Translations under genes and position numbers: made by a program
NCBI GenBank assembly: GCA_014729505.1
Contig: WJJS01000013.1
Span: forward strand, 8,457 to 72,456
Source: Candidatus Woesearchaeota archaeon
GTDB lineage: Archaea; Nanobdellota; Nanobdellia; Woesearchaeales; ARS49
DNA: 64,000 bases
Direction of reading: 5' to 3'
The notes under the pieces: model-generated
Database searches by the model: none
What the model saw: only the letters and a program-made list of their open reading frames with translations
Told to the model about the DNA's origin: nothing
In this document: one piece after another, positions 4,225 to 28,240 of the stretch
How positions within the stretch are numbered: position 1 is the first letter of the stretch
Layout: the number at the start of each line of letters is the position of its first letter

Positions 4225-6189
4225 ATGAACTCATACTATATTACGACGGCAATCGATTACCCAAACGGTCGCCCGCACATGGGCCACGCTTATGAGAAAA
4301 TCATAGCAGACGCGCTTGCACGATGGCAACGATTGCACCAACAACAAGTATTCAGTTTAACAGGAACAGACGAGAACAGTCAAAAAATCGTAGAAAAAGC
4401 AGAAAAAGAAGGCATTCCCACCAAAGAATTTCTCGACAGAAACGTTACACTCTTCAAAGAACTTTGTGAGAAACTCGATACCTCTTTTGATAACTTTATC
4501 CGTACAACGCTTCCCGAACACAAAAAAACAGCGCAAGAATTGTTTACCAAAGTCTATGAGAAAGGAGATATTTACAAGGGCACGTATAAAGGGTTATACT
4601 GCGTTGGTTGTGAACGATTCTATACGGAAAAAGATCTCGACGACGGCAAATGCCCCGTGCATCTGGAAACAGTTAAACAATTAGAAGAAGAATCCTATTT
4701 CTTTACCCTCTCAAAATACCAAGAACGACTCATCAAACACATCGAAGATCATCCAGAATTCATACAACCAGCACATAAACGCAACGAAATCCTAAACCGA
4801 CTCAAAGAACCATTACAAGATCTCAGTGTAAGCCGCACATCCATTTCATGGGGTATTCCCGTTCCTTTTGACAAAAAACACGTGATCTATGTTTGGTTTG
4901 ACGCACTCATCAATTACCTGTCAGGCATTGACTACCCCTCACAAACATTTCGCACTTTTTGGCCATGCAACGTGCACATTATCGGCAAAGACATCACCTG
5001 GTTTCATACCGTTATCTGGCCGATCATGCTCATGGCAGCAGACATACCACTACCAATTGCTGTGCATTCGCACGGATTTGTCAATCTCAAAGGAGAAAAA
5101 CTCTCAAAAAGTCGAGGCATTATCGTGGATCCACTCTCACTCATCGAAGAATACGGCAGCGATTCAATGCGCTATTACTTACTGCGAGAAATTCCGGCAG
5201 GACAAGACGGGGATTTCTCAGAAGAAGCGCTCGTTGAACGAGCAAATGCAGACCTTGCAGACGCTCTTGGCAATCTCGTGAATCGTGCGTGCGTCATGAT
5301 CAACAAATACTGTGAAGGTAAGATACCAACGCCAGGACGCGCAAGTGCATTAGAAGTTCATCTTGAAGAAAGACTGACAAGCGCTTTTCAAGCAGCAGAC
5401 AAAGCCATGAATTCACTGCACTGGCATAGAGCAGCAGAGTACATCTGGCAATTCATCCATGACGTCAACAAATACGTCAACGACAGTGCACCATGGAAAC
5501 TTGATAACGAACAACAACGGGCAACAGTACTTTACTATCTCGTAGAAGCTATCAGAAATATAACGCTACTTACCCATTCCTTTGTTCCGCGATTAAGTGA
5601 GCGCATCGCCCATATGATAGATCAGGACATCACGCATTTTGCAGATCTAGGTTTTCAATCCACCACAACCGGCACCATCGACACACCGGCAATAGTATTT
5701 TCTAAACTCAGTGTCAAACAAGTTGATCCGTTCAGCAAAGTGCTCCTGAAAGTAGGAGTGATACAAGACGTAACTGATCATCCAAACGCAGACAAACTCT
5801 ATATCCTTAAAGTACAAATAGGTCAAGAAGAACGACAACTCGTCGCAGGCATAAAATCATTCTTTACAAAAGAAGAATTAAGGGGAAAACATATCGTGAT
5901 CGTGGCAAACTTGAAACCGGCAACACTGCGAGGCGTGGAAAGTCAGGGCATGCTCCTAGCCGCAGAAAAAGCACACGACGTGGTATTGATTGAAGCACCA
6001 CACACTCCATCGGGCGAACAAGTAATGGTTGAAGGCATATCAAGTGCAGGCGGACAAATCACATTTGACGAATTCAGCAAGATCACACTCACCACCAAGG
6101 ACCACAAAGTGCTGTACAAAGACAAGTTTTTGCACAGCTCACAAGGCCCGATCACTGCAGATATTGCTGACGGAGCACGTATTCGATGA
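4225..6189 (+). CDS. metG: methionyl-tRNA synthetase with C-terminal EMAP/tRNA-binding domain
   Basis: Class-I HMGH (HIGH-type) and KLSKS motifs; CxxC knuckle (CVGCERF...CPVH); C-terminal OB tRNA-binding domain (VGVIQDVTDHPNADKLYILKVQIG). TATA tttaaata at 4195-4202, about 27 bp upstream of the ATG. Confidence 0.95.
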   Translation: MNSYYITTAIDYPNGRPHMGHAYEKIIADALARWQRLHQQQVFSLTGTDENSQKIVEKAEKEGIPTKEFLDRNVTLFKELCEKLDTSFDNFIRTTLPEHKKTAQELFTKVYEKGDIYKGTYKGLYCVGCERFYTEKDLDDGKCPVHLETVKQLEEESYFFTLSKYQERLIKHIEDHPEFIQPAHKRNEILNRLKEPLQDLSVSRTSISWGIPVPFDKKHVIYVWFDALINYLSGIDYPSQTFRTFWPCNVHIIGKDITWFHTVIWPIMLMAADIPLPIAVHSHGFVNLKGEKLSKSRGIIVDPLSLIEEYGSDSMRYYLLREIPAGQDGDFSEEALVERANADLADALGNLVNRACVMINKYCEGKIPTPGRASALEVHLEERLTSAFQAADKAMNSLHWHRAAEYIWQFIHDVNKYVNDSAPWKLDNEQQRATVLYYLVEAIRNITLLTHSFVPRLSERIAHMIDQDITHFADLGFQSTTTGTIDTPAIVFSKLSVKQVDPFSKVLLKVGVIQDVTDHPNADKLYILKVQIGQEERQLVAGIKSFFTKEELRGKHIVIVANLKPATLRGVESQGMLLAAEKAHDVVLIEAPHTPSGEQVMVEGISSAGGQITFDEFSKITLTTKDHKVLYKDKFLHSSQGPITADIADGARIR

Positions 6190-6776
6190 AATGGGAGGAG
6201 ACACTCCTCATAGCATTCTTTCCCCTCGCCATCATGATTGTCAGCGCTCATGCGCTCGTCTTTTGGCCTGGAGTCTACGAACATTTCCAAACAAAAGAAG
6301 AAGTCGACCTCTCTCATGGCGTTGCCTTAACACACTCGCTTCTCTCCTACTTTACAACAAGCAAGTACACATTACCTGATGCAGAACTGAGCAACAGGGA
6401 AGCAGAACACATTCTCGATGTCAAAATCCTGCTGCATCTGCTGCTTGCAGCAAGCGCACTCTATCTCTTAGTATTCTTGTTTTCTATAGACCACATCAAT
6501 ATGACAAAAGTACTGCTCTATGGTTCGAGTATCACACTGGGACTGCTCGCACTGAGCACGCTCATACCGTTTACTACACTCTTTGTCTTTTTTCACGAAC
6601 TCTTTTTTACGCCCGGCTCGTGGACCTTTGCAAGTGATTCAGCACTTATCCGCGCATACCCTTTTGGATTCTTTTTACGATTTGCAAGCGCTATTGCAGG
6701 ACTCGCAGCAGGACTATGCAGCACACTATTCGCAGTCACCCTTTATCGCACGTTCATGAGCAAACCTCTAGATTAA
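6186..6776 (+). CDS. hypothetical integral membrane protein
   Basis: 196 aa, about 5 hydrophobic segments; start overlaps the metG stop (ATGA). Confidence 0.5.
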   Translation: MKWEETLLIAFFPLAIMIVSAHALVFWPGVYEHFQTKEEVDLSHGVALTHSLLSYFTTSKYTLPDAELSNREAEHILDVKILLHLLLAASALYLLVFLFSIDHINMTKVLLYGSSITLGLLALSTLIPFTTLFVFFHELFFTPGSWTFASDSALIRAYPFGFFLRFASAIAGLAAGLCSTLFAVTLYRTFMSKPLD

Positions 6777-6842: not shown

Positions 6843-8096
6843 ATGGCTCGAATAATTGCACTTGTAATGCTTCTAGGATTTCTTGCAGCGTGTAGCAGCA
6901 CGCCAACAGGAAACGCACCACTGCAAGGATCTGATGATCCACAATTAATGATTTCCGGCGATCCGCTCGACGGAGACACCACTGATTTCAATGATATCAA
7001 CGATGTAGAAGACAGTGTTGACACGCTCGATGACACGCCAACCATTGACGATACACTCGACACGTCAGACGATACCACAGACACTGCAGACACAGAAGAC
7101 CTACCAGTCAAACGTGTCAAAGAAGGCGAACTCGTCAGTTTCAGCAATCTTGCAGCATCAGACCCTGATGGAGACGAGATCACCTTTAGTTTTGAAGAAC
7201 CACTCAATAATAAAGGAGAATGGCAGACAGGACGAGGAGATGCAGGCACATACATCGTCACGATCACGGCAAGCGATGGAACAACAAGTGCGACCCAAGA
7301 CGTCAAAATTATCGTCGAATCCGTCAATGCCGCACCCACAATAGAAGTAGCAGATGTCACCGTAAAAGAAGGAGAAAAAGTAACACTAGCAGTACAAACA
7401 AGCGATGAGAATGATGACGAAGTAACAGTTGTGTTTTCAGGATGGATGGACAGCGCAACACGAGATACAAGCAGCGAAGATATAGGAGAACACGAAGTCA
7501 CCATCACAGCAAGCGACGGTATGGAAACCACCAGCAAAACCATCACCGTCACCGTTATCGACGTCAATCACGCTCCAGTACTCGATGCACTCTCTCCCAT
7601 CGTCGTGACAGAAGGAGAAAAAGTCGTCATTGTGCCAACAGCAAGTGACACTGACAAGGACACACTCACGTACACCTTTTCAGAGCCCGCAGACAAAAAC
7701 GGCATATGGCAAACAAGGAAAGGAGATGAAGGACAATACACCATCACCGTTACTGTTAGCGACGGGGAACTCGAACACAGCATTGATGTGGATGTCACGG
7801 TAGAACATCTCAATACACCGCCAGAACTGTCATTAGCAGATGATCTTATAACCGTTACAGAGGGGGATACCGTCACCATCGCGTACAGCACCAGCGATGA
7901 AGACGACGACGAAGTGACCGTCACCTTTTCAGGTTGGAAAGACAGTGCAACGTTTACCACAACCTATGACGATGCAGGAGAACACACGATCACCGTTACT
8001 GCAAGCGACGGTAAAGACGAAGTGTCACAAGACGTCACGATCATCGTCGAGGACAAGAACAGACCGCCAGTGTTTGACAAAAACGCCTTTATCTAG
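6843..8096 (+). CDS. secreted lipoprotein with four tandem cadherin-like/Ig-like repeats
   Basis: Signal peptide with lipobox (LGFLAACSS). Acidic D/T-rich linker. Four repeats of about 75 aa, each ending ...ITASDG...VT(I/V)xVxxVNxxP. Confidence 0.7.
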   Translation: MARIIALVMLLGFLAACSSTPTGNAPLQGSDDPQLMISGDPLDGDTTDFNDINDVEDSVDTLDDTPTIDDTLDTSDDTTDTADTEDLPVKRVKEGELVSFSNLAASDPDGDEITFSFEEPLNNKGEWQTGRGDAGTYIVTITASDGTTSATQDVKIIVESVNAAPTIEVADVTVKEGEKVTLAVQTSDENDDEVTVVFSGWMDSATRDTSSEDIGEHEVTITASDGMETTSKTITVTVIDVNHAPVLDALSPIVVTEGEKVVIVPTASDTDKDTLTYTFSEPADKNGIWQTRKGDEGQYTITVTVSDGELEHSIDVDVTVEHLNTPPELSLADDLITVTEGDTVTIAYSTSDEDDDEVTVTFSGWKDSATFTTTYDDAGEHTITVTASDGKDEVSQDVTIIVEDKNRPPVFDKNAFI

Positions 8097-8749
8097 GCGT
8101 CCTTTTTTTTCTTATACCATTTTAGCGCGTCACGCACATCCTCAGAACCGAAAGTAGAACCGCTCTTCATGTAAAAAAACGCATAACGGGAATCCCACAA
8201 CAAAAAACCATCGAGTTTTGCAGAACCCACCTGAATAAGCAATTGCGGCGGGATCAACGAAGAAGTAAACAAATTCTCCTTAACCATCTTTGAAGTGATA
8301 AGTTCAGGACTTAAACGACCGCTTTGAATCTGCAGACCAATCAATTTAACAGCCTCAACAACCTCCTCATGACCATCATAATTTACACAAATATTAACAA
8401 AAAAACGATCAAAATCCCTCGTAGATTCAATAACATCCTTGATAGCTTCACGAACCCTCTCAGGAAGATCATACCATTTACCAAGAACGCTGACCTTCAC
8501 CTGCTGCGACGCCCACAATTCACAATTCTTAACATCAGCAAAAAACGAAGCAATCATCGAGGCAAACTCCGTACCAGGTTTTTTTGGAAAACCAAACGTC
8601 ACAATAGGAATCCGTTCTTCAATAATACAACGCACAAGAGGTTCAATCACCTCAAGAGATACTGCAGTAGCAGGCAAGGAAATCGCCACATGCAAAGGCC
8701 CCTGTCCGAAGAGAAAAGACTGCACCATAACATATTTCCATGCAAGCAA
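8093..8749 (-). CDS. degenerate cis-prenyltransferase (UppS-fold) paralog lacking catalytic DGN/RxG motifs
   Basis: Aligns along its length to the UppS family (PLHVAI.., NYDGHEEVVEAV, LLIQVGSAKLDGFLLW). DGNGRW is replaced by SLPATA and there is no C-terminal RxG. Confidence 0.65.
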   Translation of the reverse strand: MLAWKYVMVQSFLFGQGPLHVAISLPATAVSLEVIEPLVRCIIEERIPIVTFGFPKKPGTEFASMIASFFADVKNCELWASQQVKVSVLGKWYDLPERVREAIKDVIESTRDFDRFFVNICVNYDGHEEVVEAVKLIGLQIQSGRLSPELITSKMVKENLFTSSLIPPQLLIQVGSAKLDGFLLWDSRYAFFYMKSGSTFGSEDVRDALKWYKKKKDA

Positions 8750-8781
8750 GCTTTAAATAAGTTAGGACGCATCACAGTACC

Positions 8782-9618
8782 ATGTATATCGCCCTTGTCT
8801 TTGCCATACTGCTCATAGCCACGTACACCGATCTGCGATGGAGAGAAGTACCTGACTGGATCTCATACTCAGGCATACTCGCAGGCATAGGACTGCACGC
8901 AATACAAAGCATTACAGAACAATCAGTACTACCACTACTGCACGGAATAGGAGGGCTAACCTTTACAAGCATTCTGGGCGTAGGACTCTTTTATCTCGGA
9001 CAATGGGGAGGGGGCGACAGTAAAGCACTCATGGCCATGGGCAGTCTGATAGGTCTAGAACCCCGGCTAGACAGTACGCTTTTTACCTTCTTATGCTACC
9101 TCGCCATCGTCGGAGGACTCTACGGCATCATATGGACAGTGGGAAGCGCTGCTCAACACTGGTCGCGCGTCTCAATAGCACTGCGACAACGCTACACACG
9201 AGGAATAATGACCGCACAATTAGCGCTCATCCTTCTCGCACTGGGCATTACAGGAACTGCCATTCATCTTGCACCAACCTCCGACATCCTGATCGCCTCA
9301 TTTTTGCTAGCATTCCTCTTACCACTAACGTTCTTCCTCTTTACAAGCATGCGCGTCATTGAACAACACTGCTTTTTCAAAGAAATACACGTCCGAGAAT
9401 TAACAGAAGGAGACTGGATAGCACACGACATCATTCACGACGGAAAAAGACTCTGCGGACCACAAGATCTCGGCATTTCAACAACACAAATCGCACAAGT
9501 ACAAGAAGCAGGAATACAAAAAATACTGATCAAAACAGGCATGCCGTTTCTCCCAGCATTTCTTATGGCCTTTATCCTCACCACAATACTAGGATCATTA
9601 CTCCCTTATCTATTCTAA
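8782..9618 (+). CDS. type IV prepilin/preflagellin peptidase (A24 family, PibD/FlaK-like)
   Basis: N-terminal TM with first catalytic Asp (IATYTDLRWREVPDW) and second Asp in GGGDSKAL; polytopic membrane protein with C-terminal extension. Confidence 0.8.
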   Translation: MYIALVFAILLIATYTDLRWREVPDWISYSGILAGIGLHAIQSITEQSVLPLLHGIGGLTFTSILGVGLFYLGQWGGGDSKALMAMGSLIGLEPRLDSTLFTFLCYLAIVGGLYGIIWTVGSAAQHWSRVSIALRQRYTRGIMTAQLALILLALGITGTAIHLAPTSDILIASFLLAFLLPLTFFLFTSMRVIEQHCFFKEIHVRELTEGDWIAHDIIHDGKRLCGPQDLGISTTQIAQVQEAGIQKILIKTGMPFLPAFLMAFILTTILGSLLPYLF

Positions 9619-10097
9619 GGCAAACGATGCAATTGATCAAGCAAATACTGTTCATCACTTGACACTTCAGATACTGAAGACGAAAGAGATTTTTTCTCAG
9701 CAAGAGCGTCACTTAAAGAAACAATCACGGCATCCAATTGCGCTTCTTCTACCTGCTGTGGCTGCCAGGTAAAATCCACACCGTCTTGTTGAAAACGAGG
9801 TAACAAATGAAGCATGACATGATTATGCGTTTGACCAGCAGCAATCCCATTTTGAATCAACAGATTGGAACCCTGAGCTTTAAGACCATCAAAAGCCGCA
9901 GCACCCAATTTATTTGCCACAACAAACAAATGATGCATTACCTCATCAGGAACTTGCTCAATAATAGCAAAATGTTCTTTTGGCAACAAGACAATATGAC
10001 CAGTAGTTGCAGGACGACGCACAAGCTTTGCAAAACACAGCTCATCCTCGTAGAGATGATCGCCTTCCCTCGCCTTACAATACGCACATTCAGTCAT
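9615..10097 (-). CDS. HIT-family hydrolase
   Basis: 160 aa. Histidine-triad region GQTHNHVMLHLLPR and HIT-like N-terminus (CAYCKAREG...). Confidence 0.8.
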   Translation of the reverse strand: MTECAYCKAREGDHLYEDELCFAKLVRRPATTGHIVLLPKEHFAIIEQVPDEVMHHLFVVANKLGAAAFDGLKAQGSNLLIQNGIAAGQTHNHVMLHLLPRFQQDGVDFTWQPQQVEEAQLDAVIVSLSDALAEKKSLSSSVSEVSSDEQYLLDQLHRLP

Positions 10098-10723
10098 TTT
10101 GTCAAAAAATCGGTCAACTCATCAAGACCCGAACCGCCCTTTTTTTCATCAACAATCGCAGCCTCATCCTCTTCGAAACCCTGACCATCATTTTCTGACG
10201 CCCCGTCACTACCGTCACCAGTATCTATCCCGTCAGCAGACTCCTCCTTATCGGATCGTACTTCAACTCCCGGCACATCAAAACCCAAAACCGTCTTAAT
10301 CGATGGCGCAATAGCAGCACGCACCTGCAAGAATTGTTTCTCAGACAGTTCATGTTTTGGAAGATCAAAATGAATACCATCATCAGGAAGGCGGGGAATC
10401 ACATGCACCATAAAATGCTGAGCACGCTGACCACCAGCAACACCATTAGCCACAAACGTTGTCGTGCCCTGAGCCTTTAAACCCTTAATCAATGCACGGG
10501 ACACTTTCTTGGCCACCACTCCCAAATGCCCCATGAGATCATCAGGCAATTGCGGCATAATAGCAACATGCTCACTTGGAATAATCAGCACATGACCCGG
10601 ACTGGCAGGATTAATATCAAGAATCGCAATACACTTATCATCACGATACACCGTTCTAGTGGGCACGGATCCAGCAATCATCTGGCAAAAAATACATTGA
10701 TCGTCCATAAAAAATGCAAACAA
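10094..10723 (-). CDS. HIT-family hydrolase with acidic Gly/Asp-rich C-terminal tail
   Basis: 209 aa tandem paralog of the upstream HIT gene (CIFCQMIAG..., GGQRAQHFMVHVIPR). C-terminal about 50 aa low-complexity acidic tail. Confidence 0.8.
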   Translation of the reverse strand: MFAFFMDDQCIFCQMIAGSVPTRTVYRDDKCIAILDINPASPGHVLIIPSEHVAIMPQLPDDLMGHLGVVAKKVSRALIKGLKAQGTTTFVANGVAGGQRAQHFMVHVIPRLPDDGIHFDLPKHELSEKQFLQVRAAIAPSIKTVLGFDVPGVEVRSDKEESADGIDTGDGSDGASENDGQGFEEDEAAIVDEKKGGSGLDELTDFLTK

Positions 10724-10783: not shown

Positions 10784-11248
10784 TTGCAAAAGCTTCCACA
10801 ATGCATGGCACGCGGTTTATCACCCCTCACCACCACAGGACTGCTCCTCTTTATCAGCATATTACTGGGCGCAACAGTCATGACGTTTGGCGAAGAATTC
10901 ATTGAAGAAAGAAACACATTAGCTACGCCGCGATGCGACACCATAAGCATGCACGTCATAGACGTAGGAGGGAACAGCACGCTGTGCTACACGACAAACG
11001 AAGTACGACTCTTTATCGAAAACACAGGAGCAGCATCACTAACCGGTTTTCGCGCACAAATCGTCGGCACAGAAAACGTCCATGATGCAATGAGCGATAC
11101 AAGCATTGAAGCAGGAACAAGCGGATTACTCGTGTTTACCATACCACCACTGGGCATCCCGCAACAAATCCGACTCACTCCAGAACTCGACGCAGGACTG
11201 TGCCCGCAAGAATCACTCACTATTACACCCTTACACCCCTGTTCATGA
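10784..11248 (+). CDS. hypothetical secreted/membrane-anchored protein
   Basis: 154 aa; N-terminal hydrophobic segment then a Cys-containing soluble domain. Confidence 0.4.
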   Translation: MQKLPQCMARGLSPLTTTGLLLFISILLGATVMTFGEEFIEERNTLATPRCDTISMHVIDVGGNSTLCYTTNEVRLFIENTGAASLTGFRAQIVGTENVHDAMSDTSIEAGTSGLLVFTIPPLGIPQQIRLTPELDAGLCPQESLTITPLHPCS

Positions 11249-13780: not shown

Positions 13781-15317
13781 TTTACTCATCGCGCATGGCT
13801 TTGTCAAAAAAGGAGTGGACAAAAGCAAGTATAAAGGAGAGACACCTCGAGAAATAAAATCATTCATCAGATCAGAACTTAAAAAAAAGAAAGGAAAAGA
13901 ACGACAAGAATACAAACAACAATTACACGACGACGCAGACCATGACGAATTTGAAATGGTCAAAAACCAAGTTATGCTCGTCGACTATCCCAAACCAGAC
14001 AATAAATACTATCTACTCACAGAAAACTTTCATCAAAGCATTGAACCGCTCTATTTTTGGAGTCTCAACCATTTACAATACGATTTAGGCTTTGGATGGG
14101 TCGAAAAAATCACAGACATCTTCAGCGCTTCAGAACACAGTTCGTTTTGGGGAGCTGCCACAAGCCGTTTAGGATTAGCACAAGACAAAGTACAAAGCTA
14201 TATGGCCCTCATCGGCCAATTCGTGCGCAAAGACCTCTTTCAACTCGTGCGCGATATACGATGGATCGATGAACGACTCGATTATCACCGCAAAGCACGA
14301 AAAGGAGACAAAGACGCCATCACAGTACTCAAAGGCATCTGGTCCGATCTTGTCGATGGCGTCGTACAAGGACAACGAACAGGAGCAAACATCTTCCAAC
14401 TCGCACAACAATTAGGTTTTACACACCTGCCAACACTCTTCTTTGAAACAAACCCTCCAAGCGCAGATGAAGTCGACACATACGTTGATGATCTTGACAC
14501 CACATTACAGGTAAAAAGTATACTGCGGCGAAAACTGCTTGAATTCATGACCTGGATGGATCACAATTTCAAAGAACTCAAACAACGAAAACAATTCGAA
14601 CTCAAATACCTGCGACAACACTATAACATCATCCGCATGTACATTAGCTGGATCAAACCCTACCTCACACATATCGAACGATTAGGAACAGACATGTCAA
14701 AACTCAAAGGACCTGACCTCGTTGCAGCATTTGAAGGCAGCATGATCAACATAGAAGTAGCAGCCATGAAACTGCCAGAAGATAATTCAGAGATCTTTGC
14801 CACAGTCGTCATGACGTTTGATTACCGCACACGACCACAAATGGGAGGAGCATTTACACAAAAAACACCAGGATACCACGAGGGACCGGTTCACGTCGGG
14901 GAAACAAAAATAACATGGCGCGCGTACGCATGGACAGCAGAACAAGTCGAACTATTCAAACAAATGAAGGAACGAGAAGACATAGAATTACTCACAACAA
15001 TTGATGCAGGGATAAAAGCAGCAATGGACGCGATTGGAGACGAATTATGGGAATACCTCGAGCAGGCAGATCAAGAAGTACCAAAAAAAGAAGAAAAACA
15101 AGAAGAAAAAAAGACACCACCAAAACCGGGCATGTTAGACCCATTCAAAGAAGTAGGTAAAGGAGCAGCATCACTCTTTCGCGCATTCATCCCCAAGAAG
15201 AACCACAAAGAAGAAGATCTTGGAAAAGAAAAAGAAAAAGCAGCAGAAGAAGCAAGCAAACTTCTCTACACCCATTACAAGAATTTCAAAAAAAGTCACG
15301 GTATGAGTCACTGGTAA
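13764..15317 (+). CDS. hypothetical protein with K/E-rich C-terminus
   Basis: 517-aa ORF, no recognisable catalytic motif; low-complexity K/E-rich C-terminal about 80 aa. Confidence 0.5.
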   Translation: MITGSDLLIAHGFVKKGVDKSKYKGETPREIKSFIRSELKKKKGKERQEYKQQLHDDADHDEFEMVKNQVMLVDYPKPDNKYYLLTENFHQSIEPLYFWSLNHLQYDLGFGWVEKITDIFSASEHSSFWGAATSRLGLAQDKVQSYMALIGQFVRKDLFQLVRDIRWIDERLDYHRKARKGDKDAITVLKGIWSDLVDGVVQGQRTGANIFQLAQQLGFTHLPTLFFETNPPSADEVDTYVDDLDTTLQVKSILRRKLLEFMTWMDHNFKELKQRKQFELKYLRQHYNIIRMYISWIKPYLTHIERLGTDMSKLKGPDLVAAFEGSMINIEVAAMKLPEDNSEIFATVVMTFDYRTRPQMGGAFTQKTPGYHEGPVHVGETKITWRAYAWTAEQVELFKQMKEREDIELLTTIDAGIKAAMDAIGDELWEYLEQADQEVPKKEEKQEEKKTPPKPGMLDPFKEVGKGAASLFRAFIPKKNHKEEDLGKEKEKAAEEASKLLYTHYKNFKKSHGMSHW

Positions 15318-16114
15318 TGATCATCTTTAGCCATCGCGCAAACGGGTACGGATTTTTAGAAAACAGCCGAAACGCCATACAACACGCACTTGCAAGCGAT
15401 GTGGACGGTATTGAAATTGATCTTCGACTCACAAAAGACAACCACTACGTCGTCTGTCATGACGCGTATCTTGATCGCGTCTCGCGAGGAACCGGACTGC
15501 TACGCAAAAAAACTGCAGCACAACTGCAAAAAGAACGATTACTTGACGGACAAGGACTGCTCTTTTTTAATGAGTTTTTGCAACTCTTACAAACATCAAA
15601 CAAACAGTGCATCATCGAACTCAAAGATAACGGACAAGAACAAGAAGTCATCACACAACTCAAAAAGCATCACCTACTCAAGCAGTGTTTTCTCGCCTCA
15701 TGGAATCCGCACGCACTAGAAAAAATACGACACCTCTCAACACAAGCACAAACACTACTCTACTACGTACCTGTACCGCGCTTTCTCAGATTCATAACAC
15801 TTTCAAGGAAAAAAATGTTTGACGGTGACGAGGTCACGATCGGTCTTAATACCTTTTCAGCAATGAGACCTCAAGATTTCACCGTACTCCTGAGTTCATA
15901 CGTACCACAACTCTCATGTAACGGCATAGGCATACCGCACGTTGCAATACAACCACACGTGATTAAGGCATGCAAGACGCGAGGATTACATCTTATCACA
16001 TATGCAGTCAACAACACAAGTACCTACACGCGTCTACGCGCCCTAGGACTCTACGGCGTGATCAGTGACCGCCCGCGAAGTCTTTATGCAGCACGGTCCG
16101 GAGACTCCATGTAA
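15317..16114 (+). CDS. glycerophosphodiester phosphodiesterase (GDPD family)
   Basis: N-terminal FSHRANGYGFLENSRNAIQHA... and IEIDLRLTKDNHYVVCHD match the GDPD HR(G) / E-N-(T/S) / E-x-D / H-D signature. Confidence 0.85.
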   Translation: MIIFSHRANGYGFLENSRNAIQHALASDVDGIEIDLRLTKDNHYVVCHDAYLDRVSRGTGLLRKKTAAQLQKERLLDGQGLLFFNEFLQLLQTSNKQCIIELKDNGQEQEVITQLKKHHLLKQCFLASWNPHALEKIRHLSTQAQTLLYYVPVPRFLRFITLSRKKMFDGDEVTIGLNTFSAMRPQDFTVLLSSYVPQLSCNGIGIPHVAIQPHVIKACKTRGLHLITYAVNNTSTYTRLRALGLYGVISDRPRSLYAARSGDSM

Positions 16115-17076: not shown

Positions 17077-17574
17077 CTATCTTAAGAAAGCCGGAAGAGC
17101 CGGGAGAATCAAATTCCAAATATAGGGCGACGCAGCTACCAGTCCGCCAACAAAAAACGTGTGAAACCAGGTTTCAGACAAACCACTGATATTTGCCTGA
17201 GCCTTAGTCGCCCGACTCACCGCGTGCACTTTGATTGCCGTAATCACACCAATAATAATACGAATACCTAGCACACTGCTAATCACGGGAACAGTCTTTA
17301 GCGCAGGAATAAGACCCAACACAAACTCTACATTAAATACAGCAAAAGTAGCAACAAGTGCATAAATAAACGCATGAGCGGCATGACCAAATTTGTGCTG
17401 TGGCACAGCTACGTCCTTCATAAGCGTAATTGCTTCATACAAACCAATAATAAGACCGCAAACAATAGCAGACTTCAACTGCAACTCAGGACTGGCCGAT
17501 TTAGCTGCGGTTCGCTGAGCAAACACAATAGGAACAATCACCAAATAAAGCAGCCACCGCAGATGTTTCATCAT
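17077..17574 (-). CDS. hypothetical integral membrane protein
   Basis: 165 aa with signal/TM N-terminus and 4-5 hydrophobic helices. Confidence 0.5.
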   Translation of the reverse strand: MMKHLRWLLYLVIVPIVFAQRTAAKSASPELQLKSAIVCGLIIGLYEAITLMKDVAVPQHKFGHAAHAFIYALVATFAVFNVEFVLGLIPALKTVPVISSVLGIRIIIGVITAIKVHAVSRATKAQANISGLSETWFHTFFVGGLVAASPYIWNLILPALPAFLR

Positions 17575-17616
17575 AACCTCTTTTTATCACTGCATGGTTC
17601 TGCGATTATATAAATC

Positions 17617-18486
17617 TTATGCGGATTCCACATACAAGCGAGAAATTTCCCGTTCCCGTCGCGAAGAAAAATACGCTTCCTGTGCCGCTTCAAAATACGA
17701 TATCGCTTCATCAGGCTGTTCATGAACCGCATGAAATCTCGCAAACCATTCCAGTAGTGCTGATCTACGCACACCAACAGCACGATTCAAGTGACGCTGC
17801 ATAAACGTTACTGCACGTTCCTTATCTCGCAGAGCATACGTATCAGCAACAGCACAAATACTGCCCATGTCACGCAACGACGACGCACCAAGAGTATAAC
17901 GACGCGCACATGATTGATGAAAATGGTCAATAAAAGAATAGTGCTCAGTGGCAAACTCCTCAATAACAACACGAGGCATTTCACGACCATCGAGCGCGCG
18001 ATGCAAACGTTCATGATACCTATTATTTACTTTATTACGAAACCACCCATGAGCACCACTGTACTCCGGGGGAGGATCATGAAGCACTGTATCACTACTT
18101 GCCAGCAAACGATACCCAAAAGGTGAAAGAACCGCGTACTGACGCGTTTTTGGCAACTTCTCACACCAACTATTAGTTACAGCATATTCTGGCGGCAGTT
18201 GATCACAGTCTACGGGCAAACAATACTTGTGCTGCCCATCAAACAAGTGAACATCACCATCCTCTCTGCACAAGCGCAGCTGAAAGACTTCCTTATATGA
18301 CGGTTGCCACGTCATACCCTGTTCATCTGGGAAAAAAACCTGGTGCTGCTCATCTGCAGCAAGTACACACCATTCAGATTCAATAATGCCAATCATCTTC
18401 TTCCTCCACCGCAGGAGAGCGCAGTGCGCGACGATACTCTTGACGAACATGTCTGCGAATACCTCCCGCACGTTCATAGGCTTCAT
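17617..18486 (-). CDS. hypothetical protein (GC-rich, R-rich; helical-repeat-like C-terminus)
   Basis: 289 aa in a local high-GC stretch (about 58%) unlike the neighbours; no known motif. The start may be the internal MIGIIESEW. Confidence 0.45.
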   Translation of the reverse strand: MKPMNVREVFADMFVKSIVAHCALLRWRKKMIGIIESEWCVLAADEQHQVFFPDEQGMTWQPSYKEVFQLRLCREDGDVHLFDGQHKYCLPVDCDQLPPEYAVTNSWCEKLPKTRQYAVLSPFGYRLLASSDTVLHDPPPEYSGAHGWFRNKVNNRYHERLHRALDGREMPRVVIEEFATEHYSFIDHFHQSCARRYTLGASSLRDMGSICAVADTYALRDKERAVTFMQRHLNRAVGVRRSALLEWFARFHAVHEQPDEAISYFEAAQEAYFSSRREREISRLYVESA

Positions 18487-18688
18487 CCAACTCCTCCATT
18501 GTCATACACTCCAAACGCTGCTCAATCGCATCAAAATCCCGTTGTGTCTTGATTCTGCGACGCTCAATGGAATACTCCTGCAGTATCCGATCGTGAAGAC
18601 GAGGTACAGAAAAACAACACGAGATAACACCCACAGCAATAGCAGCATATAGTACCACTCGCGGCCGTTCATAGTCGTAAATTGCCAT
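18380..18688 (-). CDS. small membrane-anchored protein (GC-rich islet)
   Basis: 102 aa; one N-terminal TM (VVLYAAIAVGVISCCF) then a charged R/E-rich tail; same GC-rich composition as the overlapping downstream gene. Confidence 0.4.
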   Translation of the reverse strand: MAIYDYERPRVVLYAAIAVGVISCCFSVPRLHDRILQEYSIERRRIKTQRDFDAIEQRLECMTMEELDEAYERAGGIRRHVRQEYRRALRSPAVEEEDDWHY

Positions 18689-18877
18689 ACTCCTCCTGTG
18701 TTTTGAGCCTTAAAGAACTTTTTTTCCATCATCTGCCATCACTTGCAAAGAAAGCGAAACATGCAACGATCGCAGCGAAGATTATTCGACAAAGAACACC
18801 ATAACCGAAAATCCTGCGACCAGTCTGCAAAACATTTATATACGTCACTATCGCCTTAGTCATTAAAGAGGTGCAAC

Positions 18878-19936
18878 ATGCGACGATTGTTCAACTACAG
18901 CCTACTCACGGTGTTATTTTTACCTGCAGCTTATGCATCAAATCCTGCAGTTGATCGTGTTTTAACCTTTATTCGCGATATCTTCACATCAATCTTCAAT
19001 CCAAGTGCAGAAGGCCTTGGCATTTTTCTAAAATTCCTCATTATTGTTACCACATTTGGCATCGTCTACGAACTGCTGCCAAGCGACTGGAAAAAAGGAG
19101 TGCGCGGCGTTATTGCAGGAGGACTCGCTCTTGGCGCAGGACTCGCCATCCCAACAAGTCTTGCACTAACATCAGGCACACTGCTTGGCGCCATCGTCGT
19201 CGCAGTCATTTTCCTTATACCCTTCGCACTCTTATCCTTAGCAACATATCACGGTATGAACTATGTAGACACGAACTGGAAATATCCGGCCTTTGCACTA
19301 ATGTGGCTGGTCTATTTCACCATACTCGTGTACTTCCTGGCACATTGGGGGCAACTGCTTCAAGCATTCGCATGGGTCTTTTTTGTCGTACTCATCCTTG
19401 CCATCATCTCGCCAATCATCGTACTTGTCCTCATAGGTGTCGCCATTCTCGGCGGCGAAACACGAGAAGGAACGTCATGGAAAAACCTCATGAAAAACAT
19501 CTCACGCAATGACGTCAAAAACAAAGCAACAGATGCCAACAAACATCTGGGACGCGCACAAGCATTACTGCGGGCAGTACCAAAAACCAAGAGCGTCGAA
19601 GCAAAACATGCCAAAATACGCGAAGCTCTATCAGCATTGCGCGCAAGCAAGAACTCTGTAAACCTTATCGCGGCACAAGCAGCAAAACTCTTAGCCGATA
19701 AAGAAATCGCAGATACCACAAAAAAAGACGCCGTGCGAGACGCGCAAGACCTAGTAGGAGAACTCAACGCACTCATGTTCGACCTGCATCCACTGCTCGA
19801 TGAAGAGAAAGGCGATACCATCGATACCTATCTCAAGGATAACGATTACCATGAAAAGGATAAATCAAAGAATCCGATCGCGTTTTTCATGGATCGGATC
19901 AGCATAGTGTCACAAATCACCCGTCAGGGCGATTAG
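18878..19936 (+). CDS. polytopic membrane protein with signal peptide and soluble helical C-terminal domain (paralog 1)
   Basis: Signal peptide (LLTVLFLPAAYAS), about 6 TM segments, then a K/A-rich helical cytoplasmic or extracellular domain. TATA-like tttatata about 40 bp upstream. Confidence 0.6.
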   Translation: MRRLFNYSLLTVLFLPAAYASNPAVDRVLTFIRDIFTSIFNPSAEGLGIFLKFLIIVTTFGIVYELLPSDWKKGVRGVIAGGLALGAGLAIPTSLALTSGTLLGAIVVAVIFLIPFALLSLATYHGMNYVDTNWKYPAFALMWLVYFTILVYFLAHWGQLLQAFAWVFFVVLILAIISPIIVLVLIGVAILGGETREGTSWKNLMKNISRNDVKNKATDANKHLGRAQALLRAVPKTKSVEAKHAKIREALSALRASKNSVNLIAAQAAKLLADKEIADTTKKDAVRDAQDLVGELNALMFDLHPLLDEEKGDTIDTYLKDNDYHEKDKSKNPIAFFMDRISIVSQITRQGD

Positions 19937-19983
19937 GCGCAAACATTAATAAATATCACATTATTACAAAGGCTCGAGGTGCA

Positions 19984-21144
19984 ATGATTATGAAAAAGAG
20001 GAACCTATTATCATTCGGATTCTTAATTACAATTTTTTTGGCCAGTATGGTCTATGCGCAAAGCCCAGTGGATGTTATTATTAGCATCTTTGCAGGGATT
20101 GGTCGCGCATTAAGCGGGATCGGCAATGCGCTCTTTGGCAGTCTAGATACGCAAGCAGGAGTCATCGGACTCTTACAATTTATAGCGTGGCTCTTAATGG
20201 CAGTCGTGACCTATGAACTCTTACGATTTGTCAATCTAAGCAAAGGCGTACGCATCATCATTGGTGCACTCGTCTCACTAGGTCTTGTACTCGTCATACC
20301 AGGAACACTCATCTTGACACTGTTTGCACAGTTCGGCGCACTAGTAACGCTTTTTGTGCTCGTCATCTTTGGAGCAGTACTCACCTTAGCAACAAGCTGG
20401 CTCAAACCAATAGACAGCTGGCAGAAACTGCTCATCGTCTGTCTCGTCTGGGGTAGCTTTTTGTGGATCATGTGGAATCTGTTCCTCGGCATCAACACCT
20501 CAAATGCTATTCCAGGAGAACTCGCACAATGGCCCATGGTCGTCTTTACCATTTATGGCGTAGGTGTTCTTGCATGGCTCATCTTGAGCGTGCTGTTTTC
20601 AGGCGGACAAACAGTTGCAGAAGGAAAAACATTCAAAGCCATAAAAAAAGCTGCAAGCAAAAAATGGGAATCAGCAGTGCTATCAAAAGTAGGTCGCGAA
20701 ACAGAACGAGTAGCATCATCACTAGACAAACATTACAACGAACTCAAATCGAAAGGAGCAACATGGGATGCAAACGCGCTCAAAGATAATTTTTGTCAAC
20801 CAGTAGAACTCGAACTGGCAAAGATTTCTTCACTTCTCAACGTCGAAGTAAGCAAAATGGATGCGGTCTCAGGAAAACCCCATCAAACATTAGTGGACTA
20901 TATCAAAAACAATGTGATAAAATTTATTGAAGCAACAGGAAATCCTACCATCGGAGGATTCCACCTCAAGCACGGAGGACTAGAACCATGGCTCAAGGAA
21001 GGAGGATGGTTGCACAGTAATTGGGAGACTGGCGATAATGTCAAGTCAGACCTTGCAACGTACTGCACGGCAGAATTAGGGCCTGCTCTTGCCACCTTCC
21101 ACGACATGCTCTACAAAGTCAATAAAGATCTTCCCAACCTATAA
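19984..21144 (+). CDS. polytopic membrane protein with signal peptide and soluble C-terminal domain (paralog 2)
   Basis: Same architecture as 18878-19936 (signal peptide FLASMVYAQSP, about 6 TM, soluble C-terminal domain); similar size. Confidence 0.6.
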   Translation: MIMKKRNLLSFGFLITIFLASMVYAQSPVDVIISIFAGIGRALSGIGNALFGSLDTQAGVIGLLQFIAWLLMAVVTYELLRFVNLSKGVRIIIGALVSLGLVLVIPGTLILTLFAQFGALVTLFVLVIFGAVLTLATSWLKPIDSWQKLLIVCLVWGSFLWIMWNLFLGINTSNAIPGELAQWPMVVFTIYGVGVLAWLILSVLFSGGQTVAEGKTFKAIKKAASKKWESAVLSKVGRETERVASSLDKHYNELKSKGATWDANALKDNFCQPVELELAKISSLLNVEVSKMDAVSGKPHQTLVDYIKNNVIKFIEATGNPTIGGFHLKHGGLEPWLKEGGWLHSNWETGDNVKSDLATYCTAELGPALATFHDMLYKVNKDLPNL

Positions 21145-22142
21145 TGGCTTTCCAACGATTTGTCCGGATGCGCGCAGAACTCTCGGTACTCTACAATAAA
21201 ATAGACGGGCCGAAAGTCAAAACAACAAGCGACGTAGACGATTTAGAAAAGAAATTCATCCCTCTGGCCGCCGAGCGTGTACAAACATTTCTTAAACACG
21301 ACGGTAAAACAAGACTGCACGTTATCCAACAAGAATATAACGAGCTAGGCGTGAAAAATCTCGACACTGTCAACAAAAGCGTGTTTCGCGCACCAAGTGC
21401 AACAATGCCCCAACTGCTCGAAGCAAGCAAACATGTCAAAGTCGCTACTATCGATAAAGAAATCGTACGACAAGAAGAGAAAAAAGCAGAAGCACAACGA
21501 ACAATCGACGAAGTCAAGAATTGGATCACAGATAACTACGGCGCGGTAGCAGGAGCTGCAGACGCAGCCAAAGCAGAACGGGCGACAAAACGAGCAGAAG
21601 AAGACGAAGCTCTTGAAGCAGTCACAGAAAAAAAAGCAGAACTACAAGCACTGAGTGGCGCAAACGCACTAGCAAAAGAAATATTCTTGCGTAGTCAAGC
21701 AGGCATGCCCAACCCACAAATACGCAGCGAACTCATCAGCGAAGGTAATGCAGAAGCAGACGTAGACGCAGCATTTGCACTTACCGATCCACTCATGATG
21801 GCATTGAGTGCACGACTTGATACGTGGAAAGAAAAAAACACTGCGAAAAAAGATGCAGAAGCACAGTACCAAGAACTCAAAAGTCAGATGCGCAAAGGCG
21901 TCAAAGCAAAAGAGAAACGCAAAGCAGCAGAAGAACAACTAGACGAACTACAAAAAAATCGCGTACAAATTATCACTCTAGGACTCGATCTTCAAGAACT
22001 CTGGCGCTTGCACACGCAGATAGTGAGTATCGACTTGACAGGTACGTACGACGAACAACAACTCAAACTCGAAATACTACACTTCAAAGCGACGATCTAC
22101 CATCTCACACACCGCGTTCTCACACCGCTTATCGAAGCTTAG
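21144..22142 (+). CDS. hypothetical alpha-helical/coiled-coil protein
   Basis: 332 aa; ATG overlaps the stop of the preceding gene (taATGg), suggesting translational coupling; E/K/A-rich helical regions. Confidence 0.5.
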   Translation: MAFQRFVRMRAELSVLYNKIDGPKVKTTSDVDDLEKKFIPLAAERVQTFLKHDGKTRLHVIQQEYNELGVKNLDTVNKSVFRAPSATMPQLLEASKHVKVATIDKEIVRQEEKKAEAQRTIDEVKNWITDNYGAVAGAADAAKAERATKRAEEDEALEAVTEKKAELQALSGANALAKEIFLRSQAGMPNPQIRSELISEGNAEADVDAAFALTDPLMMALSARLDTWKEKNTAKKDAEAQYQELKSQMRKGVKAKEKRKAAEEQLDELQKNRVQIITLGLDLQELWRLHTQIVSIDLTGTYDEQQLKLEILHFKATIYHLTHRVLTPLIEA

Positions 22143-23548
22143 TAAAACCTGGCAATTCTTGTCAGTTTTCGCACAACATCCTGACGTTCTTCAGTACTTA
22201 AAGGCAAATCCAAAAGACATTCATAACAGGAACGGGCTCCTACAGCATCCGGACGATCCTGCTGGAGATACGCTTCGGCCATCCATTCAAGAGAACGACG
22301 CTGGAACGTCTCGCTGGCTTGAGAGTTTATACGAGACAAGAACGGAATCGCAAACGGAGCGCGAAACCCTGCCTTGTTCGAAAACACTTCTAAGTCATTC
22401 TCAATAATACCTCGCCAACCCGCATCAGCAGCACGCCAAACGTCTGCATAAATACGCTGCGCTTTCTCCCGACTCTCAGGAGTACCAAGATCAAGCAAGG
22501 AACGCGCATACGTGATCTTTGCAGTCATATCCGGTAAGTCAAGCGTAGCAAATCGGCCAGCAGCTGTCGACGCATCGCCATTCGCGTATGCGTTATACGC
22601 GCGCTTAAGCCAAAAATTCAAAACACTCGGTTCAGGCAAACGAGACCAGCGAGTCTGTCCACGAGGTTGAGGACGTCTAGGCAAAGTCGCCCTTGCAGCA
22701 GAGCCGCCTCCAGACATACCTGCAAGTCCGCCCCACACCTGTCTATACATATCAGTTAAATCAGTCATTGCACTTCCTCCACCACTTGGCATGGCGCCGG
22801 CGGCTCCAGCAGCAGGCACACTACCAGCTCCAGTCGAGCCACTAGGTGCGGGCGAAGCCAGCCCCCCACGTTCAGCAACATAGCCGGCCAAACGGCTCAG
22901 CTCGTCACGTGTTAATCCTAATTGTTCGCGCGCTGTTTCAAGATCTTCAGTGGCGCGATCACGTTCACGTTCAGCAAACGCATAATTCGTCTCGAGTTGT
23001 TCGCGATTACGCTGTTCATGCATCAAATCAATTTCAAGATCAACAACATTGGCTCTTTCATCACTTAACTCTTGTTCGACCTCTTCAATACGGCGTTCGT
23101 AATCTGCAATCTGACGATCAAGATAACGCACTTCAACTAACGCGTCGACAAGATCTCCGACAAGATCGTGAACATACTGACGAGCCTCACCAAGATCTCT
23201 TCGATTGCGCTCATCAACCGTTAACCACGCATCACGCTCATCACGACGATCAGCACGATCATCAGCTAACGCATCCATCCATGCATCACGCTCATCACGA
23301 TGATTCGCATCAGCAAGACGACGAGCAGCATTACGGTCAGCATACAAACGACGACGTTCAAGATCACGATCAGTATAAAACTGCCTTCGTTCATCAGCAC
23401 GATCATCAACCCACGCATCACGCTCATCACGACGATCAGCACGCTCATCACGACGATCACGCAACACACGAACAAGCGCTTGAAAGAGCGCTCCCGCTGG
23501 CAAATTGCTATAATCAAATCCACTCATTCCTATATGTTGTCTAGCCAC
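22139..23548 (-). CDS. ORFan protein: N-terminal RDERDAW tandem repeats, coiled coil, Gly/Ala/Ser linker, helical-repeat C-terminal domain (GC-rich island gene E)
   Basis: 469 aa. About 26-aa repeats (DRRDERDAW.DD.AD) encoded by three copies of the about 27-nt motif (g)catcacgctcatcacga(c/t)ga within 23225-23445; GC about 60%. Confidence 0.55.
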   Translation of the reverse strand: MARQHIGMSGFDYSNLPAGALFQALVRVLRDRRDERADRRDERDAWVDDRADERRQFYTDRDLERRRLYADRNAARRLADANHRDERDAWMDALADDRADRRDERDAWLTVDERNRRDLGEARQYVHDLVGDLVDALVEVRYLDRQIADYERRIEEVEQELSDERANVVDLEIDLMHEQRNREQLETNYAFAERERDRATEDLETAREQLGLTRDELSRLAGYVAERGGLASPAPSGSTGAGSVPAAGAAGAMPSGGGSAMTDLTDMYRQVWGGLAGMSGGGSAARATLPRRPQPRGQTRWSRLPEPSVLNFWLKRAYNAYANGDASTAAGRFATLDLPDMTAKITYARSLLDLGTPESREKAQRIYADVWRAADAGWRGIIENDLEVFSNKAGFRAPFAIPFLSRINSQASETFQRRSLEWMAEAYLQQDRPDAVGARSCYECLLDLPLSTEERQDVVRKLTRIARFY

Positions 23549-23567
23549 TGTCGTTACTTATTGTTGT

Positions 23568-24671: not shown

Positions 24672-24727
24672 TTTCCTCTTTTTAAATCTTTCTATTATTC
24701 ACTACTCCAGAGTGTTAACCGTTGGCT

Positions 24728-25941: not shown

Positions 25942-25943
25942 TT

Positions 25944-28088: not shown

Positions 28089-28240
28089 GCATAATGCCAG
28101 AATCACTGAGAAATCGACAACAACTCCGTTTTTTCGTCTGAAATCTCGCCCTCGCAAGATTCTGAGATAACTTACTTTGTCGATATTTTCCCAGAAATTT
28201 TGTTATAATGCCGTCAGCGCAGGGATAATGCCAGAATCAC
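28089..28240 (+). repeat. two copies of 17-bp direct repeat (g)ataatgccagaatcac plus a partial third copy (ttataatgcc) in the AT-rich spacer
   Basis: Copies at 28089-28106 and 28224-28240; a shorter ataatgcc at 28203-28210. Each copy carries an ATG (MPES...) opening short ORFs of 15 and 44 codons. Confidence 0.6.

Follow-up and report, generated by a model that had tools for sequence, protein, structure and literature searches.

The 64,000-nucleotide stretch of Candidatus Woesearchaeota DNA considered here (contig WJJS01000013.1, positions 8,457 to 72,456; hereafter the window) carries two genes for proteins of the cis-prenyltransferase (cis-PT) family. The gene at 32091-32783 on the forward strand encodes a canonical, intact cis-PT, an archaeal UppS of the homodimer type. 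The gene at 8093-8749 on the reverse strand encodes a catalytically degenerate protein of the cis-PT fold, here called the dead copy, which belongs to a family of dead proteins specific to DPANN archaea. Divergent from the dead gene lies a gene for a class III signal (prepilin/preflagellin, FlaK-type) peptidase of family A24 (8782-9618, forward strand). Both cis-PT open reading frames (ORFs) were verified at these coordinates, and the 90,052-bp source contig, part of a metagenome-assembled genome, carries the dead copy (P0001) together with the intact UppS (P0106). Two starts are possible for the dead ORF, a TTG at 8749 that would give 218 residues and an ATG at 8728 that would give 211. The ATG appears to be the more likely start; the NCBI record P0001 has 211 residues, in agreement with it, and the first ten residues of the 218-residue version were poorly modelled by AlphaFold2 (AF2). 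A terminator-like hairpin was noted at 8083-8100.

A first-pass annotation of this DNA had described the ORF at 8093-8749 as a catalytically degenerate UppS-fold paralog alongside a canonical enzyme, and this description was borne out by profile searches, by structure prediction and by the loss of the catalytic columns. The dead copy matched the Pfam profile PF01255 with 77.6 bits (cut-off 27), although the aligned profile positions were only 57-215 of 219, and it matched TIGR00055 with 77.7 bits, which is under the equivalog cut-off of 109.55. In a BLASTP comparison it was 27% identical to the window UppS over 158 residues (E 6e-17). The AF2 model, built with 101 homologs, had a pLDDT of 91.5 and a pTM of 0.87. 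When this model was compared with known structures by Foldseek, it superimposed on the Micrococcus luteus undecaprenyl diphosphate synthase (UPS, 1f75) with a TM-score of 0.82 and an rmsd of 2.2 Å over 218 aligned columns, and its top 50 matches in the PDB were all enzymes of the cis-PT family, with TM-scores of about 0.8. The end-to-end match to UppS that had been claimed for the protein therefore holds at the level of structure, but not at the level of the sequence profile. The motifs quoted in its favour (PLHVAI, NYDGHEEV and LLIQVGSAKLDGFLLWDSRYAFFYM) are all present. The model shows the six-stranded parallel sheet and the seven helices of the cis-PT fold, except that the window copy lacks helix 1. 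With this exception, the dead ORF is predicted to have the complete cis-PT alpha/beta fold.

The window UppS gave a different picture. It matches PF01255 over its full length with 250 bits and TIGR00055 with 241.6 bits, it aligns with UPS 1f75 from end to end (E 3e-52), and it is 57-75% identical to abundant orthologs in other Woesearchaeota. Moreover, it retains DGNRR, GH, FSMQNFNRP, RTGGDKRTSNF, the Glu that follows LTWQSWYS, and a C-terminal RRFGK. The last of these contains the RxG motif, which was present in 118 of the 120 relatives of the intact UppS that were inspected, these being the best 120 of thousands of matches. We infer from this that the intact UppS, located 23 kb from the dead gene, is a self-sufficient homodimer. 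The start of uppS overlaps by 8 nucleotides with a forward-strand ORF of 168 residues without a Pfam match (31592-32098), and the two are probably co-transcribed. Just upstream are genes for RpoL and for a small methyltransferase, and downstream are those for the ribosomal proteins L1, L10 and L12.

To map the catalytic residues, the dead copy was aligned with 40 canonical relatives and with E. coli UppS, the numbering of which is used here. The numbering of the E. coli sequence agreed with the literature for D26, R30, R39, H43, S71, N74, W75 and R77. In the P-loop of the window copy, D26, G27 and N28 are replaced by Pro, Ala and Thr, respectively, and R30, W31, R39 and H43 are deleted. In the S71 loop, S71 has become Lys and N74 Gly, while W75 and R77 are deleted. 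At the isopentenyl diphosphate and C-terminal sites, R194 is replaced by Gln, R200 by Lys and S202 by Asp, E213 is lost, and R242-x-G244, the RxG motif, is absent from a C-terminus that reads ...KWYKKKKDA. Of these residues, R30, R39, H43 and R77 are ligands of the allylic diphosphate, and S71, N74, R194, R200, S202 and E213 belong to the isopentenyl diphosphate site; the positions that bind Mg2+ and both diphosphate substrates have thus been lost. The earlier reading that the catalytic Asp, the RTSGE.RLSNF block and the C-terminal RxG have all been lost in this protein is thus correct, as is its counterpart that the canonical enzyme keeps all three elements, given there as DGNRR, RTSNFLTWQ and RFGK. 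Closer examination revealed that the strand A (residues 20-24) and the next helix, which corresponds to helix 2 of UppS, are separated by 7 residues in the window copy as compared to 17 in UppS. Physically, the window copy therefore has neither a P-loop nor a helix 1. Since, in addition, there is no Asp or Glu within the 8 residues following strand A, no alternative register can restore the active site.

The other members of the dead family, of which 101 were aligned, show the same tendency with some variation. The D26 column is occupied by Glu in 37 members, by Asp in 14, by Gly in 13, by Asn in 9 and by other residues in the remainder. N28, R30 and R39 are lost across the family and H43 is mostly Tyr. 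The N74 column is hydrophobic, W75 is deleted, the R194 column contains Lys, Glu, Ile, Leu or Val, and S202 and E213 are variable. The C-terminal RxG is missing in 97 of the 101 members, whereas the remaining four end in an RxG-like W-R-R-G, and the columns of the tail consist of gaps in 78-93% of the sequences. The columns that line the tunnel in canonical enzymes have stayed hydrophobic, yet they have become bulkier: A47 is replaced by Phe, A69 by Leu, Val, Ile or Phe in all members, and A92 by Phe. The A69L and L137A variants of the E. coli enzyme are chain-length mutants. As judged from these substitutions, the alignment suggests that the former lipid tunnel is filled or shortened. We infer that the family protein is non-catalytic and that elongation of polyprenyl diphosphates by it is impossible.

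The dead copy is by no means an isolated case. A word-indexed protein search returned 105 homologs, and all those with source names were from Woesearchaeota, Nanoarchaeota or Nanoarchaeia. At least 279 loci that encode a relative were identified by a pattern scan in which each GTDB species was represented by one genome. When 1.84 billion cluster representatives (50% identity) were searched exhaustively with a profile, 346 matches with E-values of 1e-30 or less were obtained, and about 118 of the best 143 of these scored higher with the dead-family profile than with the canonical one. In databases, the members are named hypothetical protein, UPP synthase family protein, polyprenyl diphosphate synthase, or di-trans,poly-cis-decaprenylcistransferase. 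NCBIfam contains no model that is specific to the dead family, and all matches to its models were far under the equivalog cut-offs. Likewise, no description of the family came up in literature searches on cis-PTs and UppS of DPANN archaea and Woesearchaeota. Among the longer members, the additional length was due to low-complexity insertions or doubtful N-terminal extensions, and no fusions to other domains of the Rosetta-stone type were found.

The pattern of conservation within the family is uneven. The signatures of the family are (V/I)LGKWYDLP, N(F/L)C(V/I)NYDG and LLWD, which in the window copy read VLGKWYDLP, NICVNYDG and FLLWDS, and G90, W92, Y93, Y124, G126, K157, L184 and D186 are invariant. 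The mean frequency of the most common residue was 0.43 for residues 20-81 compared to 0.70 for residues 82-195. The lowest values, 0.33 and 0.40, were obtained where the P-loop and the S71-R77 loop, respectively, had formerly been, and the highest were those of the GKWYDLP loop (0.97) and the region comprising strand D, NYDG and helix 5 (0.72-0.82). In cis-PTs, the dimer interface is formed by helices 5 and 6 and the linker between strands E and F (PMC7573591). Because conservation falls on this interface region and on GKWYDLP, it appears that selection has kept the dimerisation half of the protein and a loop that is specific to the family. The dead-family protein would accordingly be expected to dimerise through the conserved interface. 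Furthermore, the ratio of non-synonymous to synonymous substitutions (dN/dS, Nei-Gojobori method) was 0.07-0.29 for pairs with a dS of 0.3-0.9, which shows that the dead genes are under purifying selection. Together with the presence of the gene in at least 279 species-level genomes, this disposes of the possibility, which had been named as one that would undo the first-pass annotation, that the degenerate copy is absent or pseudogenised in all relatives.

With respect to the origin of the family, the searches of proteins and cluster representatives also returned intact cis-PTs of a sister type (P0313, P0323 and P0369). These keep DGNRRWA, GH, S..N.KR, RSGGEKRLS, the Glu and a C-terminal R/KxG, with P0369 ending in RRYGQ, and they share KVK(I/V)SVFG, NFCINYDG and (G/A)F(L/M)LWDS (as GFLLWDS or FMLWDS) with the dead family. 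In a neighbour-joining tree, which should be regarded as a coarse method for sequences as divergent as dead and intact cis-PTs, the dead family was monophyletic in 100 of 100 bootstraps, joined P0313 and P0323 in 64 of 100, and was separate from the clade that contains the window-type UppS. The monophyly of the dead family and its place next to intact sisters indicate that it arose once, from an archaeal lineage of catalytic enzymes. Since Q208D, G146D and N203G were in place before catalysis was lost, these substitutions cannot be read as adaptations of a pseudoenzyme. GKWYDLP, on the other hand, is confined to the dead family, the intact sisters having GDY..LP at this position. The window copy itself belongs to a long-branched subclade with P0002, P0314 and P0299, in which the P-loop helix, helix 1, has additionally been deleted. 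Taken together, the dead sequences constitute a previously undescribed, monophyletic family that is restricted to DPANN archaea of the Woesearchaeota/Nanoarchaeia type.

The most conspicuous feature of the genomic context of the dead gene, which the first-pass annotation had overlooked, is the neighbouring peptidase gene. The product of the latter in the window matches PF01478 with 47.4 bits, and its best match in the PDB is FlaK (3s0x). By tblastn, an A24 gene was found divergent from the dead gene in 77 of 82 loci, in 71 of them within about 400 bp. A separate clustering of ORFs placed it beside the dead gene in 80 of 83 loci, every time on the opposite strand. The catalytic aspartates of the peptidase, D17 and the Asp of G76-x-G78-D79, are intact in 78 of 78 loci. 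By contrast, no A24 gene was seen beside intact sister-type cis-PT genes, so that the A24 linkage belongs to the dead family. For the same reason, there is no support for the further idea that a place beside the A24 gene was ancestral for uppS and has been retained by the dead copy. A gene for a catalytic cis-PT was not found within 10 kb on either side of the dead gene in any of the 82 loci. A dead and an intact copy were present on one contig in two genomes, namely in that of the window, where they are 23 kb apart, and on the 1,301,350-bp contig JANQNC010000001.1, where the dead locus L063 and the sister-type intact P0369 are separated by about 435 kb; direct demonstration of the co-occurrence of dead and intact copies is confined to these two genomes.

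The dead gene and the A24 gene of the window are separated by a spacer of just 53 bp (8729-8781), in which a single TATA-like octamer, TTTAAATA, can be read at 8753-8760. This octamer lies about 25-28 nucleotides from the ATGs of both genes. A comparable arrangement was found in 19 of 67 related loci, which have a spacer of 51-63 bp and a single central TTTATAAA about 26 nucleotides from each ATG, while others have two TATA boxes in a spacer of 80-100 bp. The spacing of these elements suggests that both genes are probably transcribed, as leaderless mRNAs, from one bidirectional archaeal promoter.

Beyond the peptidase gene, and convergent with it, lies a gene for a HIT-family protein (9615-10097, reverse strand; PF01230, 62.7 bits) that is a member of a conserved block. 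It is followed by a gene for a second HIT-family protein with a HIT and a DcpS_C-like domain (10094-10723, reverse strand; PF01230, 76.2 bits; PF11969, 49.7 bits). HIT genes were found beyond the A24 gene in 64 of 83 loci, and the HIT pair is likewise present in the locus L001. About 37 loci contain a block of L7Ae, S28e, NDK and EF2 genes. This block is not found in the window, where a gene for a secreted PKD-repeat protein is convergent instead. A putative type IV pilin-like protein is encoded at 10784-11248 on the forward strand, 1.2 kb from the A24 gene. This assignment is by motif only: the protein has 154 residues, no Pfam match, and an apparent class III signal peptide in which MARG is followed by LSPLTTTGLLLFISILLGA (MARG-LSPL...). 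Homologs with N-termini of the KGISPLIATVLL type are encoded near the A24 gene in 12 related loci as well. The pilin-like protein may be regarded as a likely substrate of the adjacent peptidase. In the loci L002/L003 (1-9941), the A24 gene overlaps the 3' end of a gene for a Wzx/MurJ-like flippase (Polysacc_synt), which closes a glycan-biosynthesis cluster with GT2 and GT4 glycosyltransferase genes, a DegT aminotransferase gene, two radical-SAM/SPASM genes, an ATP-grasp gene and a CapK-like gene. This arrangement, which is a single case, hints at a link between the dead cis-PT/A24 pair and lipid-linked glycans. Lastly, many of the loci (L010, L019, L020, L023, L029 and others) come from TPA bins labelled 'uncultured Methanosarcinales archaeon', and one from a bin labelled 'Pseudobdellovibrionaceae bacterium'. 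As a block of the Woesearchaeota type (HIT, A24, dead cis-PT) is found in these bins, their taxon labels are probably wrong.

That the family is dead, conserved and linked to A24 genes can be stated with high certainty, but our certainty about its exact role is much lower. The reading that we prefer, with a probability of roughly 0.55, is that the dead protein is a non-catalytic, dimeric pseudoenzyme of the pilin and envelope module, in which the GKWYDLP and NYDG motifs have become a new binding surface. In mechanistic terms, it would act as a non-catalytic dimeric adaptor or regulator, which we propose with moderate to low certainty. It would be expressed together with the class III signal (prepilin) peptidase, in many cases by way of a TATA box common to both genes, and this co-expression would imply that it works in the biogenesis of surface filaments and the envelope rather than as a subunit of a polyprenyl synthase. 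The GKWYDLP loop would lie at the surface next to NYDG, and the resulting patch is the probable new binding surface. Completion of the active site of a partner in the manner of NgBR would be impossible for the dead protein. A more specific and rather doubtful extension of this proposal is that the dead fold has been recruited, outside polyprenyl synthesis, as a dedicated partner of the prepilin peptidase in the filaments by which DPANN archaea attach to their hosts. Such a partner could dock on the cytoplasmic face of the peptidase via the invariant GKWYDLP/NYDG patch, or it could bind an isoprenoid lipid and thereby couple cleavage of the pilin leader to lipid-linked glycosylation.

Several considerations weigh against the view that the dead protein serves a pilin and envelope module. 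The link to the peptidase is one of guilt by association only. The order HIT-HIT-A24-dead cis-PT-L7Ae-S28e-NDK is in part a generally syntenic block in this clade, and because the region is generally syntenic, the adjacency of the A24 gene could be partly historical. It should also be noted that, where an enzyme that is an obligate dimer has a dead paralog, the latter usually acts on the live one, for which there are several precedents among prenyltransferases. The occlusion of the tunnel and the dimerisation are themselves suggested by the alignment and the literature. Moreover, the D26 column is still acidic (Asp or Glu) in about half of the family members (51 of 101), and Lys is found at the R77, R194 and R200 columns. 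Typical members may therefore have retained the ability to bind a ligand, for example a phosphate-bearing lipid.

The precedent of dead paralogs acting on live ones leads to the main alternative, namely that the dead protein pairs through the dimer interface with the intact cis-PT of its own cell and leaves the heterodimer with a single, crippled active site, thereby titrating or tuning the synthesis of carrier lipid (its rate or the length of the chain), perhaps in coordination with the making of pilins. We consider this unlikely, though it deserves to be taken seriously. The interface half is indeed the best conserved part of the dead protein, the interface motifs NFCINYDGQ.EIV and (G/A)F(L/M)LWDS are common to the dead family and the intact P0313 and P0369, the two kinds of gene occur on one contig in two genomes, and inactive paralogs that are paired with active prenyltransferases are known (NgBR, Nus1, MM_0618 and Af0707). 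As RxG works in trans in homodimers too, a partner without RxG should reduce activity; the single live site of a heterodimer of dead protein and UppS would lack the trans RxG, so that attenuation is expected and not activation. However, the dead gene is unlinked to a catalytic cis-PT gene in the 82 loci, and the intact partner would be of different types in the two genomes (window-type versus sister-type). A constitutive inhibitor of an essential enzyme would be odd in a streamlined genome, and the invariant GKWYDLP loop, which is found in no intact cis-PT, rather suggests a new partner. Activation, as achieved by accessory subunits of the NgBR, Nus1 or Af0707 type in heteromeric cis-PTs, is what the first-pass annotation had in mind when it likened the pair to DHDDS/NgBR and to archaeal two-subunit enzymes. 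The likeness does not hold up, and we regard such a role as highly improbable. It is true that a degenerate cis-PT homolog coexists with a catalytic one, that the four W-R-R-G tails mentioned above would fit, and that yeast Nus1 does not depend absolutely on the Arg of its motif (PMC7573591). Yet the tail is truncated in the family, with 97 of its 101 members devoid of RxG, whereas the intact enzymes keep an RxG of their own (RRFGK, RRYGQ) and are thus of the homodimer type. The same annotation had in fact noted that RxG sits on the catalytic partner rather than on the degenerate subunit, which is correct, and it is precisely this that breaks the analogy. In addition, the dead-family profile matched catalytic cis-PTs over their full length with E-values of about 1e-37 as compared to 0.01-0.06 for NgBR/Nus1 chains. 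The dead protein has a full fold, its top 50 structural matches included neither NgBR/Nus1 chains nor other accessory subunits, and its gene is not linked to uppS.

It is also conceivable that the dead protein is still an enzyme whose chemistry has changed, such as a prenyl or lipid transferase of a non-canonical kind in which the Glu or Asp of the D26 column is used and Lys stands in for Arg. This would be in line with the acidic residue in 51 of 101 members, with the predominance of Lys at the R77, R194 and R200 columns, with a nearly invariant H20, and with the invariant polar residues K85, S87, K91, D94, T110, D114, N119, N123, K157 and D186; lack of RxG is no obstacle as such, since MM_0014 of Methanosarcina mazei is an active cis-PT without it (PMC8131916). 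Nevertheless, none of the would-be catalytic columns is conserved in more than about 60% of the members and the window protein has none of these residues, conservation is lowest at the P-loop and the S71-R77 loop, helix 1 is wholly deleted in the window subclade, and the conserved polar residues are located in the interface half and not at the S1 site. We therefore hold an enzymatic role to be very unlikely. Least credible of all is that the gene is a functionless relic, a decaying duplicate that owes its persistence only to the conserved syntenic block around it. In favour of this, the catalytic residues have decayed and the window copy deviates at the near-invariant residues Y113F, I130V, Y161F, Y164S and F165L. 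Against this stand ORFs that are intact in 82 loci, a dN/dS well below 1, the occurrence in at least 279 species-level genomes, motifs that are invariant across proteins with just 35-45% identity, and a confident fold prediction. At the level of the family, the intact ORFs, the dN/dS values and the spread over at least 279 genomes refute this explanation.

These findings have a number of implications. Many members of the dead family are annotated as active UPP or polyprenyl synthases, with the consequence that the synthesis of carrier lipid can be over-counted when the metabolism of DPANN archaea is reconstructed. The family can be told from active enzymes by a simple test for motifs, namely GKWYDLP present with DGN and RxG absent. 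Furthermore, the family shows that non-catalytic cis-PT paralogs have arisen independently a second time, here from a catalytic lineage of which an intact sister survives. It thus offers a clean system to study how enzymes that are obligate dimers become pseudoenzymes which, unlike NgBR, make no contribution to catalysis. The near-universal pairing with a prepilin peptidase, often from a shared promoter, provides a concrete lead into the assembly or regulation of the type IV pilus-like surface structures of host-dependent archaea. If the dead protein should prove to be a partner of the peptidase, this would be a role of the cis-PT fold wholly outside polyprenyl synthesis.

Some further features of the window may be mentioned. 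The region 17077-29058 contains about a dozen consecutive ORFs of 165-556 residues without a Pfam match at E≤1e-3, and between 22 and 28 kb the GC content is slightly higher (0.475-0.497) than elsewhere in the window (about 0.42-0.45). Either an integrated element or genes specific to the lineage could account for these ORFs. Two lipid-related enzymes that are unusual for a DPANN genome are also encoded in the window, namely a homolog of Lit, the lipoprotein intramolecular transacylase of bacteria (6186-6776, forward strand; PF07314, 57.8 bits), and a glycerophosphodiester phosphodiesterase (GDPD; 15317-16114, forward strand). On the forward strand, every 2-kb bin of the window (1-64000) has a negative GC skew (-0.02 to -0.27), and the AT skew is mostly positive (up to +0.55). 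The cumulative GC skew falls monotonically to -5.05 without a turning point.

The dead family can be compared with several known systems. In heteromeric cis-PTs (DHDDS/NgBR, Rer2/Nus1, plant CPT/CPTL, MA3723/MA4402, MM_1083/MM_0618 and Af1219/Af0707), the catalytic subunit lacks RxG, and the C-terminal RxG of the accessory subunit crosses the dimer interface into the catalytic site. In homodimeric cis-PTs, RxG likewise acts in trans. Like the dead copy, NgBR, Nus1 and the plant CPTL proteins (Lew1, CPTBP) have lost catalytic residues, have conserved the C-terminal interface half, and coexist with a catalytic paralog. Unlike them, the dead copy has no RxG (or NxG) tail and its catalytic paralog has an RxG of its own; it has a full-length fold with the N-terminal half kept and no transmembrane region; and it is closer to catalytic enzymes by profile and is encoded next to a prepilin peptidase gene. 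MA4402 (MaUPPS-B), MM_0618 and Af0707 resemble the dead copy in being archaeal, soluble, degenerate paralogs of a catalytic cis-PT. According to their descriptions, however, they supply RxG to the RxG-less MA3723, MM_1083 and Af1219, which is the reverse of the situation in the window, and these systems are euryarchaeal whereas the dead family is from DPANN archaea. A covalent counterpart of such pairs came up in the search of cluster representatives: P0340 (522 residues), which is unrelated to the dead family, is a tandem fusion of two cis-PT domains, an intact N-terminal one (DGNRRWA ... RTSGELRLS) and a degenerate C-terminal one that ends in RSRRFGA. It combines a catalytic domain with an RxG donor and can be viewed as a Rosetta stone for heteromers of the NgBR type. 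The small subunit of the heteromeric geranyl diphosphate synthase of plants is an inactive paralog that acts by dimerising with, or regulating, the active one. It has the unrelated all-alpha fold of trans-prenyltransferases and is a mechanistic precedent solely for a heterodimer of dead and intact copies.

MM_0014 shares with the dead copy the absence of a C-terminal RxG. Unlike the dead copy, it has kept the catalytic Asp and the residues that bind the substrate and catalyses C- and O-prenylation, and the dead-family profile matched it only over the last 60 or so profile positions (E 2e-9). Homodimeric UppS (TIGR00055) has in common with the dead copy the fold (TM-score of about 0.8), the N-Y-x-G-x-x-E-I of region IV, the LLW motif and, probably, the geometry of the dimer. 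It differs in that D26, N28, R30, R39, H43, S71, N74, W75, R77, R194, R200, S202, E213 and RxG are not conserved in the dead family and are all absent from the window copy. The closest resemblance is to the sister types P0313, P0323 and P0369, which form the nearest branch in the neighbour-joining tree and share KVK(I/V)SVFG, NFCINYDG and (G/A)F(L/M)LWDS with the dead family, but which have kept the catalytic motifs, have no GKWYDLP and are not encoded beside A24 genes. Non-catalytic paralogs of cis-PTs were thus known before. What is new about the family described here is that it combines the loss of RxG with a full fold derived from a catalytic lineage and with a prepilin peptidase as the partner gene.

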